Shown piece by piece: positions 3,143 through 47,568 of a DNA stretch of 64,000 nucleotides. Both the position numbers and the translations under genes were made by a program. The DNA lies in contig PCXL01000011.1 of assembly GCA_002787695.1 (NCBI GenBank), positions 61,155-125,154 on the forward strand, read 5' to 3'. Position 1 is the first letter of the stretch; each line of letters opens with the position of its first letter. Below the pieces are notes generated by a model that was given only the letters and a program-made list of their open reading frames with translations, was not told the DNA's origin and ran no database searches. This stretch comes from Candidatus Zambryskibacteria bacterium CG10_big_fil_rev_8_21_14_0_10_42_12 (lineage in GTDB: Bacteria; Patescibacteriota; Minisyncoccia; Phycocordibacterales; 1-14-0-10-42-12).

Positions 3143-3200
3143 CATGAAAAATGAAGAGGCTCCCGCAAGGGAGCTTTTTCATGTGACCCTACGGGCAGAA
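3143..3200. terminator. Compound hairpin terminator after tRNA-Glu; its outer stem is an inverted copy of the tRNA 3' end
   Basis: GGGTCACATGAAAAA-TGAAGAG-GCTCCC-GCAA-GGGAGC-TTTTTCATGTGACCC. The inner 6-bp stem plus T-run is flanked by a 15-bp outer inverted repeat. Confidence 0.6.
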
Positions 3201-3330
3201 AGGGGTCGGGGAAACTGGGTGTTTCCCCGTGGAGGAAGGCAGTGAGTCCTCGAACGTTGGAAAACCGTGGGTTTCCAAGGTCTCGTAAGGGTCAATGAAA
3301 AATTATCTGTGACCGAAAGTGTATTCACGT

Positions 3331-3348
3331 TTCCCCGTAGGGTCACAT
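3331..3348 (+). repeat. 18-nt perfect direct repeat of the tRNA-Glu 3' end (TTCCCCGTAGGGTCACAT)
   Basis: Identical to 3128-3145. The two copies bracket a 185-bp hairpin-rich segment at 3146-3330. Confidence 0.8.
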
Positions 3349-37156: not shown

Positions 37157-37339
37157 CGACTTTCGTCGAGGAGAAGCGCTCCTCGACGAGTTTTTAATGT
37201 TTGTCAAAAAAGCAAAAATAAGCATACAATAGGGACTGCTTGTCCGGGTGATGGAATCCCAAGTAGCAAAGCGAAGCTTACTACGGGACGGGTTGGTAAC
37301 ATAGGAAAAATTACTGAGTGTTGTTTAATAATTTGGAAT

Positions 37340-37421: not shown

Positions 37422-37610
37422 CAAGAATAAAAGAACTGGGCACGAATGTGTCTCGTGATTTTTATTCTCGCCTCGGGCGGGAATCGAAAGCCGGAGCGCG
37501 CGAAGCCGACCGTAGGTCGTGTGCGAGGCGGGGTCGCGACCTCCGTCGTGAAGATTTACCCAGCACTTATAACATAAGTGCTGGGTTTATCGAAACAGGA
37601 GAGTTGTGAC

Positions 37611-37628
37611 CGATTCCCGCCCCGGGCA
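37611..37628 (+). repeat. 18-nt direct repeat of the tRNA-Leu(TAA) 3' end (CGATTCCCGCCCCGGGCA)
   Basis: Identical to 37404-37421. The 190-bp segment between them contains hairpins and a partial inverted copy of the T-arm (GCGGGAATCGAA). Confidence 0.8.
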
Positions 37629-37988: not shown

Positions 37989-38061
37989 CCGCCCATAGCT
38001 CAGTTGGTAGAGCAGTCGCCTCTTAAGCGAACGGTCGTAGGTTCGAATCCTACTGGGCGGA
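37989..38061 (+). tRNA. tRNA-Lys (anticodon CTT)
   Basis: CCGCCCATAGCTCAGTTGGTAGAGCAGTCGCCTCTTAAGCGAACGGTCGTAGGTTCGAATCCTACTGGGCGGA. It has anticodon loop CTCTTAA and an unusual C1:G72. Confidence 0.75.
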
Positions 38062-38076
38062 TGTAATTTAACTCTC

Positions 38077-38784
38077 GTGCTAATGTTTTTTATATTAATA
38101 TATGGTATACGCTATATGCCTTACAATATTAAATACTACAAAACATATCAGTGGAGTAAAAAGTTGGCATATATAATTGGACTTATTGCAACAGATGGAA
38201 GTCTGTCTGTTGACGAGCGTCATATTGATTTTACATCTAAAGATTTAGAGCTTATCAAAATTTTTAAAGATTGTCTGAAACTTTCAAATAAAATAGGTAT
38301 TAAGAAGAGCGGCACAAACAGAGTTTGTTTTTGTATACAATTTGGTAACAAGAATTTTTACAACTTTCTAAATTCTATAGGGATTTATAAGGCTAAATCC
38401 AAAACTATAAAAAGGATTGATATACCTAATAAATATTTTCCACATTTTTTACGTGGCTGTTTGGATGGCGATGGTAATATTGATTTATACAAACATGCAC
38501 AAAGTCAATATATGCAAATTAGATTTAGATTTGCATCTGCGAGTAAACCATTTCTAGAATGGATATTACAGGTATTAAAAATAAAATATAGTATTGAAGG
38601 AGGTTGGATTTATAGTCAAAAAAATAAATCAACCCATGTTTTAGTCTTTGGTAAGACAGACACTTTGAAAATTGGAAAAATCATGTATCATGACCATGCG
38701 AACTTATGCTTACAAAGGAAGTTTGCAAAATATAAACAATGGGCAAGTGGCGGAATTGGTATACGCGCTAGTCTTAGGAACTAG
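38077..38784 (+). CDS. LAGLIDADG homing endonuclease (double-motif), AT-rich; 3' end overlaps tRNA-Leu(TAG) by about 44 nt
   Basis: Two LAGLIDADG motifs, LAYIIGLIATDGSLS and FLRGCLDGDGNID. About 28% GC. It lies between tRNA-Lys and tRNA-Leu(TAG). Confidence 0.8.
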   Translation: MLMFFILIYGIRYMPYNIKYYKTYQWSKKLAYIIGLIATDGSLSVDERHIDFTSKDLELIKIFKDCLKLSNKIGIKKSGTNRVCFCIQFGNKNFYNFLNSIGIYKAKSKTIKRIDIPNKYFPHFLRGCLDGDGNIDLYKHAQSQYMQIRFRFASASKPFLEWILQVLKIKYSIEGGWIYSQKNKSTHVLVFGKTDTLKIGKIMYHDHANLCLQRKFAKYKQWASGGIGIRASLRN

Positions 38785-38822
38785 TGCCGCAAGGCTTGGG
38801 AGTTCGAGTCTCCCCTTGCCCA
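38741..38822 (+). tRNA. tRNA-Leu (anticodon TAG), type II
   Basis: GGGCAAGTGGCGGAATTGGTATACGCGCTAGTCTTAGGAACTAGTGCCGCAAGGCTTGGGAGTTCGAGTCTCCCCTTGCCCA. Confidence 0.85.
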
Positions 38823-38950
38823 CAGTGAGTTTTCGAACGAGGACAAGGACTAGCTTGTGATAACAAGCGTTAGTCTGACTCGAAGCCTGTTTGAGATATT
38901 TTGTGAGCTGGCGAAACAAAATATCCAAACACGGGTACTGAACCTGTAAG

Positions 38951-38974
38951 GTTCGAGTCTCCCCTTGCCCACAG
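38951..38974 (+). repeat. 24-nt direct repeat of the tRNA-Leu(TAG) 3' end (GTTCGAGTCTCCCCTTGCCCACAG)
   Basis: Identical to 38802-38825. The intervening 125 bp contains the hairpin GATATTTTGT...ACAAAATATC and a partial anticodon/T-arm-like stretch. Confidence 0.8.
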
Positions 38975-46470: not shown

Positions 46471-46499
46471 AAAAACCGCCTGAGGCGGTTTTTGTTTTG
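46471..46499 (+). terminator. Rho-independent terminator after clpB
   Basis: AACCGCC-TGAG-GGCGGTT followed by TTTTGTTTT. Confidence 0.7.
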
Positions 46500-46624
46500 G
46501 TGCGCCGGGAAGGACTGCGAACACCTTGGAAACCCACAAACCGGGAAGGATTCGCCCCACATTTTATTTATAGAAACAAAACTGTTAACATTAATACTCA
46601 ACAGGTCAATTGTGAAATATAAGA

Positions 46625-47431
46625 ATGGCTAGACGCTGGACAAAAGAAGAAGAGAAGTATTATCGAGATGAATTAGTAAATTTATATTACTCCAAAAACT
46701 TGAGCATGCATGAGGTAGCAAAGGTTTTGAATATAAAATCAGCTACGGTTTTTGATAGATTGCGCCGGTTACGTATTAACACGGTGCCTCATCTTAAGAA
46801 GGGTTATCGAAACGTTCGCAAAGATATTCGTATCCCAGATTGTCATGATGCAAATTTGGCAGAATTTTTTGGCATCATGTTGGGCGACGGCCACCTTTCT
46901 CATTTTCAAGTAACCGTAACATTGGGAACAAAAGAATATGTGTATGTGCAATATGTAAAAAAGTTAATGGAAAAAATTTTTAAAGTGCCAGTTAAAATCT
47001 CAGAAAGGAAGTTTAAGCGAACGGATAATAAGCATTATACTGTTTATTTTGGTTCAACCGTAACGAGTCAGTGGTTAAAAACTGAGGGTTTAGTAGAAAA
47101 TAAAGTGAAAAATCAAGTCGATGTTCCAAAGTGGATATTTGAAAATAATATATTCATGGAAAGATTTTTAAGAGGGTTTTTTGATACTGATGGATCGGTT
47201 TATAAATTGAGGCACGGCATACAAATTGGACTAACAAACCGTTCACTACCGATGCTGAAATCTTTACAATTGATGCTAAAAACACTAGAATACAGGACGT
47301 CTGAAATCAGTGGTTTTCGCTTGTATATAACAAAGAAGCAGGATCTAAAAAGGTTTTTTAAAGAGATTAAACCGAAAAATCCAAAACATACTGCCAGATT
47401 TCAGGAATATCTCAATGCGTCAGTCGCATAG
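46625..47431 (+). CDS. LAGLIDADG homing endonuclease (double-motif) with N-terminal HTH; 3' end overlaps tRNA-Tyr by 15 nt
   Basis: Two LAGLIDADG motifs, LAEFFGIMLGDGHLS and FLRGFFDTDGSVY. N-terminal LSMHEVAKVLNIKSATVFDRLRRL is HTH-like. AT-rich. The stop codon TAG lies inside the tRNA-Tyr acceptor/D region. Confidence 0.8.
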   Translation: MARRWTKEEEKYYRDELVNLYYSKNLSMHEVAKVLNIKSATVFDRLRRLRINTVPHLKKGYRNVRKDIRIPDCHDANLAEFFGIMLGDGHLSHFQVTVTLGTKEYVYVQYVKKLMEKIFKVPVKISERKFKRTDNKHYTVYFGSTVTSQWLKTEGLVENKVKNQVDVPKWIFENNIFMERFLRGFFDTDGSVYKLRHGIQIGLTNRSLPMLKSLQLMLKTLEYRTSEISGFRLYITKKQDLKRFFKEIKPKNPKHTARFQEYLNASVA

Positions 47432-47500
47432 TGGCAATTGCACGAGACTGTAAATCTCGCGGCCTTTTGGCCTACGGGGGTTCGAGTCCCTCCTGGCGCA
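47417..47500 (+). tRNA. tRNA-Tyr (anticodon GTA), type II
   Basis: GCGTCAGTCGCATAGTGGCAATTGCACGAGACTGTAAATCTCGCGGCCTTTTGGCCTACGGGGGTTCGAGTCCCTCCTGGCGCA. Confidence 0.8.
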
Positions 47501-47568
47501 CAATAAAGTAAAACAGCTCGCAAGGAGCTGTTTTACTTTGTATTGCTCTGTTTGGTATATTTAATCCT

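Follow-up and report, generated by a model that had tools for sequence, protein, structure and literature searches.

A stretch of 64,000 nucleotides from Candidatus Zambryskibacteria bacterium CG10_big_fil_rev_8_21_14_0_10_42_12 (Patescibacteria; contig PCXL01000011.1, positions 61,155 to 125,154; hereafter the window) contains a gene for a LAGLIDADG protein whose open reading frame (ORF) runs, without a stop codon of its own, into the gene for tRNA-Tyr(GTA). We consider it probable that this ORF belongs to a homing-endonuclease cassette that is free-standing, has no intron and sits within the tRNA-Tyr gene, with cleavage as the predicted activity of the ORF product. The cassette would consist of a short leader, the LAGLIDADG gene with its N-terminal helix-turn-helix (HTH) domain, and a replacement for tRNA positions 1-27. 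The enzyme would recognise the intact tRNA-Tyr gene and cut it across positions 27/28, and repair off an occupied allele would copy the cassette in. Immunity of occupied alleles would follow from the splitting of their site and from the divergence of the anticodon stem and the replacement D arm.

The association between the ORF and its tRNA is constant across relatives of the protein, of which about 900 are detectable, 53-61% identical over the full length and almost all from Patescibacteria; an exact match occurs in a metagenome-assembled genome of Candidatus Zambryskibacteria. With one genome per species scanned, 263 genomes proved to contain relatives; 80 loci (designated by L numbers) were fetched. 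In all 78 loci with enough 3' flank, tRNA-Tyr(GTA) stands on the same strand directly 3' of the ORF, and each of these downstream tRNAs is complete, with compensatory acceptor pairs. The stop codon of the ORF falls inside the tRNA in 62 of the 78 and at most 14 nt upstream of it in the other 16. The anticodon loop CUGUAAA supplies a UAA stop in 27 loci, and in the window the TAG stop is formed by tRNA-Tyr bases 13-15. The variable C-terminal tails of the proteins (ASVA, ASVG, RRSDSGYSRRL and others) are translated tRNA. Another LAGLIDADG gene of the window belongs to a second family, for which tRNA-Leu(TAG) lies directly 3' of the ORF, abutting or overlapping it, in all five contexts. Since tRNA-Tyr is the partner in 78 of 78 cases and tRNA-Leu(TAG) in 5 of 5, the pairing is not due to chance. 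The preliminary description of this DNA had already argued as much for the type-II tRNA partners of both ORFs, and its account of a double-motif LAGLIDADG ORF with an N-terminal HTH and a TAG inside tRNA-Tyr(GTA) likewise holds.

A motif, T-GG(Y)AGAG(Y)GGTCAATT(R)CA, recurs upstream of the ORF in the majority of loci. Its 16-nt core was detected in 55 of 76, where shuffled sequences gave 4.7, and in 30 loci the motif ends at -29 to -31 from the ATG. A counterpart is found in tRNA-Tyr genes free of the endonuclease. When metagenomes were scanned for tRNA-Tyr with the same type of D loop, 120 loci were recovered, 108 of them with tRNA-Tyr, and no relative of either LAGLIDADG gene was present at these 108 D-loop-selected loci. 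The 5' part of the 108 genes, GCGTCGGTGGTAGAGTGGTCAATTACA followed by ACAGACTGTAAA, is identical to the upstream motif to position 27 and not beyond; GCGTCGGTGGTAGAGTGGTCAATTACAACAGACTGTAAATCTGTCG is an example of such an empty gene. Among the upstream copies positions 8-27 are kept and positions 1-7 are at background, with full copies of 1-27 in five loci (L040, L025, L051, L012 and L002) that reach GCGTCGGT, the acceptor strand. The motif's only other occurrences are in D arms of tRNA-Tyr and, by chance, in clpB; apparent extra copies far upstream were rejected as the codons for KGRVVNFKN in that gene. The upstream motif is best read as the original 5' part of the tRNA, displaced and left as a stub.

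The gene clpB neighbours many empty and many occupied loci, and the spacer from clpB to tRNA-Tyr measures 45-180 nt in many of the former versus 843-1200 nt in most of the latter. The empty layout is clpB, a short spacer and tRNA-Tyr; the occupied layout is clpB, the stub (tRNA positions ~8-27, sometimes 1-27), some 30 nt, the ORF and a complete tRNA-Tyr. Because the stub matches endonuclease-free tRNA-Tyr in this shared clpB synteny, the cassette appears to lie within the tRNA gene, at the junction of D arm and anticodon arm (position 27/28), and the first ~27 bases of the window tRNA-Tyr would be a cassette-borne replacement segment. The ORF would borrow the tRNA stop because the cassette ends with the replacement copy of positions 1-27, which the ORF enters. 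The D arm of the window tRNA-Tyr, GCATAGTGG-CAATTGC, differs from the GGTAGAGTGGTCAATTAC of endonuclease-free relatives. A stub search with the window's own tRNA-Tyr over 1.2 kb upstream gave no significant match because this D arm differs from the stub, and on the core the window's stub copy agrees at only 10 of 16 positions. The stubs of the window are short and are recognised mainly through comparison with other loci. Separately, a TCCACA or ACACA motif recurs 8-12 nt 5' of the stub in L016, L005, L011, L037, L046, L057 and others, and could form a candidate inverted repeat with the stub GTGG.

Motifs and fold both place the protein among the LAGLIDADG homing endonucleases. In Pfam, LAGLIDADG_3 covers two stretches of the 268-residue chain (E = 6e-17) and N-terminal HTH matches are weak (UPF0122, 1.5e-4; MarR; sigma-70 region 4); profile comparison matched HTH chains of UPF0122, RacA and WhiA. 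The peptides GIMLGDG and FFDTDG correspond to the two LAGLIDADG motifs, each with its acidic residue (D88 and D189), and both residues are invariant in 27 of 27 and 80 of 80 homologues, an invariance subject to ascertainment bias since the peptide patterns used to fetch loci include motif 2. An AlphaFold2 model built with 27 homologues as input (predicted local distance difference test, pLDDT, of 91) has an N-terminal bundle of helices 7-23, 28-35 and 39-48, followed by two alpha-beta-beta-alpha-beta-beta-alpha LAGLIDADG domains in tandem, which together make up the DNA-binding saddle of this enzyme type. The solved structures that it resembles most are the TliVMA intein endonuclease (Foldseek E = 1e-10), I-Tsp061I, I-DmoI, I-SceI, PI-SceI and WhiA. 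The protein is thus of the LAGLIDADG homing-endonuclease type, with a predicted cleavage activity. Its ORF has a GC content of 33-37%, versus 40-48% in the upstream clpB. The features of the window on which this account draws are collected in Table 1.

Table 1. Features of the two LAGLIDADG loci in the window (positions are those of the window)
Feature	Position	Strand	Basis or remark
Degenerate tRNA-Tyr 3'-end fragments (T arm, acceptor and CCA)	46499..46560	-	75 nt after the clpB stop
Decayed tRNA-Tyr D-arm stub (putative), GGTCAATTG	46604..46612	+	13 nt 5' of ATG; matches stub consensus T-GGYAGAGYGGTCAATTRCA
HTH and double-motif LAGLIDADG gene	46625..47431	+	268 aa; no own stop codon before the tRNA
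N-terminal three-helix HTH domain, residues 7-48	46643..46768	+	AlphaFold2 model, weak Pfam HTH, profile matches
LAGLIDADG motif 1, LAEFFGIMLGDGH	46856..46894	+	acidic D88 at 46886-46888
LAGLIDADG motif 2, RFLRGFFDTDGS	47159..47197	+	acidic D189 at 47189-47191
Promoter-like site TTTACA-17-TAGAAT within the 3' end of the ORF	47263..47291	+	consensus match only
tRNA-Tyr(GTA), class II, functional	47417..47501	+	ARAGORN; Rfam 54 bits
ORF/tRNA overlap, codons GCG TCA GTC GCA TAG = tRNA bases 1-15	47417..47431	+	sequence
Hairpin then T-rich run 3' of tRNA-Tyr, probable terminator	47507..47539	+	read from sequence
First LAGLIDADG gene, 222 aa from ATG at 38116	38116..38784 (ORF from 38077)	+	LAGLIDADG_3
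tRNA-Leu(TAG), partner of the first LAGLIDADG gene	38741..38823	+	ARAGORN, Rfam
Stub (putative) TGGTATACGC = tRNA-Leu(TAG) positions 17-26	38103..38112	+	the first LAGLIDADG gene begins (ATG) 3 nt further on

Positions 8-27 of the stub are selectively retained while positions 1-7 decay, which argues that the stub is functional, and its likely function is that of a promoter. A sigma-70-type match of at least 9/12 is present in 34 of 76 loci against 2.7 expected, with the stub TTGCAA (tRNA positions 22-27) as the -35 box. In 23 of these 34 loci exactly 6 nt separate the end of the -10 box from the start codon, and a leaderless mRNA is implied. The stub could double as an operator through which the window enzyme controls its own gene, much as I-TevI represses its own promoter. 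Placement of the stop codon within the tRNA would add a further control: once RNase P had cut at the 5' end of the tRNA, the mRNA would be without a stop codon and less protein would be made. As for the tRNA itself, the promoter-like site near the 3' end of the ORF could drive tRNA-Tyr, and the hairpin and T-run that follow tRNA-Tyr were not picked up by a simple terminator scan.

The distribution of the cassette among hosts bears on its mobility. Among hosts with 83-87% identity in the C-terminal half of ClpB, occupied loci are interleaved with empty ones, and the gene is lacking in 27 of the 69 loci with a ClpB neighbour, interleaved with carriers, in a sampling that is biased. One and the same site is thus filled in some related genomes and vacant in others; the empty sites that the preliminary description had proposed to seek do exist among close relatives, as a homing-type element would lead one to expect. 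A single host clade can contain endonuclease lineages with no more than 48-54% identity (L014 and L070; L015, L017 and L022 versus L071 and L075); the hosts of L014 and L070, for example, share 83% ClpB identity, and their endonucleases 48%. Conversely, L051 and L058 form a reciprocal-best endonuclease pair in distant hosts, at 72% identity for the endonuclease and 64% for ClpB. At matched ClpB distance, the identity of the anticodon arm is 67% between occupied and empty loci versus 87% between empty loci, and that of the T arm and acceptor 82% versus 91%. Mobility is also favoured by one decaying copy: in L074 (4016-4798) the homologous endonuclease gene is split into two ORFs and is a pseudogene. 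Segment-wise Mantel tests of the tRNA 5' segment against endonuclease or host gave weak correlations (r ~0.1).

The same site is also used by other proteins. L082 has the stub GCGTCGGTGGTAGAGC[23-nt hairpin]GTCAATTACAA, 26 of whose 27 bases are identical to its own tRNA-Tyr, followed by a GIY-YIG ORF and then tRNA-Tyr. The PD-(D/E)XK (PF11645) ORF of L179 ends 7 nt before tRNA-Tyr, and in L166 and L186 an uncharacterised HTH protein with the motif LYWCEGSK or LYWAEGYK abuts tRNA-Tyr. The LAGLIDADG gene is absent from all four loci, which suggests that nuclease genes turn over at one hotspot. With three nuclease families at one site, tRNA-Tyr 27/28 would be a hotspot for cassettes. A wider proposal, which we put forward tentatively and think doubtful as a whole, is that the candidate phyla radiation (CPR) harbours a guild of intron-less LAGLIDADG, GIY-YIG and PD-(D/E)XK cassettes in essential tRNA genes, characterised by replacement 5' segments, a stub serving as promoter and operator, throttling by RNase P, and addiction. 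If this were true, loss of a cassette would recreate a cleavable tRNA gene and the cassette would act as an addiction module, which would explain the long-term purifying selection.

Several observations weigh against a homing cassette, or at least against a simple one. The stub in the window itself is just 9-13 nt long, and the conserved stub promoter is not intact in the window copy. The endonuclease-free sample was picked by a D-loop pattern, so the difference in the D arm of occupied tRNAs is partly ascertainment, and four occupied loci (L004, L013, L041 and L078) retain a target-like D arm. The nearest endonuclease relatives are usually the nearest ClpB relatives (Mantel r 0.40). Ratios of non-synonymous to synonymous substitution (dN/dS) are 0.04-0.18, with dS from 0.5 to saturation, a purifying selection as strong as that on ordinary genes, and this selection and the 79 intact copies among 80 fit a host function at least as well as they fit repeated homing. 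Exact-protein look-up of the neighbouring aminotransferase revealed no within-population polymorphism, contigs of the same strain all being occupied. Because inheritance is mostly vertical and purifying selection strong, a purely selfish reading is uncertain.

These points lend substance to domestication, which we treat as a serious rival even though we judge it rather unlikely. Here an ancient insertion would have been kept for a host role and would no longer home; the resulting LAGLIDADG-HTH protein might bind DNA to regulate either its own promoter or the tRNA-Tyr locus, or might act as a nuclease against foreign DNA. The low dN/dS over long divergence, the mostly vertical descent and the intactness of nearly all copies would follow naturally from such a role, and the added HTH domain, the structural similarity to WhiA and the selectively kept stub 8-27, overlapping the gene's own -35 box, point the same way. 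Harder to accommodate are the invariance of both catalytic aspartates, a patchy presence among relatives with 83-87% identical ClpB, distinct endonuclease lineages in one host clade, other nuclease families at the same site and a base composition that looks foreign. Two marks of a WhiA-like regulator in particular are missing: D88 and D189 are kept, and in the biased sample presence is not conserved throughout the host clade. The preliminary description had proposed a different target, the 5' flank just outside the tRNA, and in that case the upstream motif would be a promoter element resembling a D arm by chance. The comparison with endonuclease-free alleles corrects this, as the insertion appears to lie inside the tRNA gene, with the tRNA's former 5' part, up to position ~27, displaced upstream of the ORF. 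That five loci retain the stub from tRNA position 1, with acceptor strand, that the L082 stub matches its own tRNA almost throughout, and that the motif is otherwise confined to tRNA-Tyr D arms and a chance clpB stretch make flank targeting improbable, despite an ORF that abuts the tRNA 5' end in every locus, a tRNA-Lys-to-ATG spacer in L202 no longer than the spacer of an empty locus, and the absence of a stub from three of the four tRNA-Leu-family contexts.

An intron, self-splicing or otherwise removed, would give a mature tRNA-Tyr in which the stub is joined to positions 28-85. The tRNA genes of Patescibacteria often contain group I introns, and the tRNA introns known from this phylum are located in the anticodon loop (PMC13011429). 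Joining of the stub to the 3' part downstream is conceivable in principle, but in all 78 loci a complete tRNA with compensatory acceptor pairs follows the ORF, and stub positions 1-7 are decayed in most. Rfam searches of both cassettes and their surroundings, at the gathering threshold and at E <= 1, returned only tRNAs and no intron or ribozyme family, and we regard an intron as extremely improbable. Carriage by a phage was rejected because viral contigs hold only 25-27% identical relatives, and so was an integrative element of the tyrosine-recombinase, tRNA-targeting kind, which would have an integrase gene and a direct repeat of the tRNA 3' end; the cassette has only one ORF and duplicates the tRNA 5' end. 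Taken together, the comparisons lead us to conclude that this is most plausibly an old homing-type cassette, predicted to be catalytically competent, that is inherited mostly vertically, occasionally lost or replaced, and preserved intact by selection.

The first LAGLIDADG gene of the window resembles this arrangement in outline. Its ORF (38116-38784) enters tRNA-Leu(TAG) by 44 nt, and the C-terminal tails of its family are the tRNA-Leu 5' region translated, in all three frames. The spacer between tRNA-Lys (37989-38061) and tRNA-Leu(TAG) is 680 nt, filled by the gene, and the same spacer is 19-114 nt in endonuclease-free relatives (L124, L108). The score of its stub within 100 nt was reached by 6 of 500 shuffles and over 1.2 kb was marginal (29 of 200); the stub is seen only in the window and is absent in L201, L202 and L204. 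A further stub noticed by eye 5' of tRNA-Leu(taa), near 37240, was unsupported by the stub search and rejected. The preliminary description had taken the two LAGLIDADG proteins for paralogues of one family. Both do belong to LAGLIDADG_3, but with 24% identity over 150 aa (E = 5e-8) they are only distant relatives rather than close paralogues.

Between clpB and the stub of the window, two degenerate copies of a tRNA-Tyr 3' end lie in the segment 46499-46560, one ending in ...CCCGGCGCACCA. An intact convergent tRNA-Tyr is found at the same distance from clpB in L111, L108, L180, L162 and L045, and the segment is probably the scar of an earlier gene arrangement; the alternative is a remnant of a tRNA-3'-end element. 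The segment has GTGGGTTTCCAAGGT in common with the element after tRNA-Glu, and its TGGTGCGCCGGGAAGG also occurs 5' of the PD-(D/E)XK gene in L179. More generally, tRNA-Tyr may be co-directional with or convergent to clpB, and the occurrence of both orientations among carriers and non-carriers implies repeated inversions around tRNA-Tyr.

Structured elements of 110-190 nt lie 3' of tRNA genes in the window (~2734-2913 on the minus strand, 3144-3346, 37423-37628 and 38824-38972) and in L025, L052, L082, L085 and others, at 30 of 398 tRNA genes and 10 tRNA species. Each begins with a terminator hairpin and an inverted copy of the tRNA T-loop, T-stem and acceptor 3' strand, continues with a conserved core (TTCGAA-GRCGGAGC ... 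CGCGAGCCGGTGCC ... and a hairpin with loop GCGACGG) and ends in 14-22 nt that exactly repeat the tRNA 3' end in direct orientation. Elements that follow different tRNAs have homologous cores, compensatory changes occur in 21 of 25 predicted pairs, and the elements have no Rfam match.

The closest analogue of the window cassette is provided by the mobile endonuclease ORFs (mORFs) of fungal mitochondria, known from atp6 of Allomyces macrogynus and from atp6, atp9, cox2 and nad3 of Glomus, which carry a replacement C-terminus and leave the native C-terminus downstream (PMC3630166). Shared features are a free-standing LAGLIDADG or GIY-YIG gene inside an essential gene with no intron, a cassette that brings a copy of the displaced segment while the native segment persists as a decaying remnant, an ORF that may share the reading frame of the host gene and do without a stop of its own, and a patchy presence. 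At the tRNA-Tyr locus, too, the ORF lies in a gene without intron or intein, accompanied by a functional copy and a displaced remnant. Unlike the mORFs, however, the cassette has a tRNA as its host gene and a bacterial chromosome as its setting, and the arrangement is a mirror image, with the 5' end duplicated and the stub upstream. It also differs in that the stub is apparently reused as a promoter and in being long-lived under purifying selection.

Phage T4 genes of the Seg and Mob type spread by cutting the empty allele, with co-conversion of the flanks, and SegB acts in a tRNA gene region. These free-standing endonucleases exemplify intronless homing, with SegB situated in a tRNA cluster (PMC2988022, PMC13096335), and they have in common with the window gene that they are intron-less nuclease genes between or beside conserved genes. 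The phage enzymes are nevertheless GIY-YIG or HNH nucleases, lie between genes and, unlike the window cassette, duplicate no part of a gene. The fold of the window protein, with two motifs and conserved acidic residues, is also that of the TliVMA intein endonuclease, I-Tsp061I, I-DmoI and PI-SceI; the window protein is 17-22% identical to such intein and archaeal-intron enzymes and differs in its extra N-terminal HTH and in having neither intein nor intron. The likeness to WhiA lies in a LAGLIDADG fold joined to an HTH and in possible promoter binding. WhiA has lost the catalytic acidic residues. In the window protein the catalytic aspartates are retained, and unlike WhiA it has its HTH at the N-terminus and is patchy rather than universal.

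Within the same phylum, tRNA genes of Patescibacteria host group I introns (PMC13011429) and insertions in CPR rRNA genes host LAGLIDADG genes (PMC11270868). The phylum, the class of mobile nuclease and the use of stable RNAs as targets are common to these cases and the window; the window cassette, by contrast, is without a ribozyme, sits at 27/28 and not in the anticodon loop, and has the tRNA kept by duplication rather than by splicing. We did not find this arrangement described in the literature, including these two reports, and the use of a spare copy was previously found there only for mitochondrial protein genes of fungi. The arrangement explains annotated ORFs that end within a tRNA, and in a major radiation of uncultured bacteria it affects no fewer than 263 genomes, each standing for a species. 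It offers concrete target sequences for new meganucleases specific for tRNA genes, through which the question of selfish or domesticated enzymes becomes testable. Set beside the known systems, the cassette would represent a third route into essential stable-RNA genes, neither intron nor intein, in which the invading gene brings with it a spare copy of the piece that it displaces.

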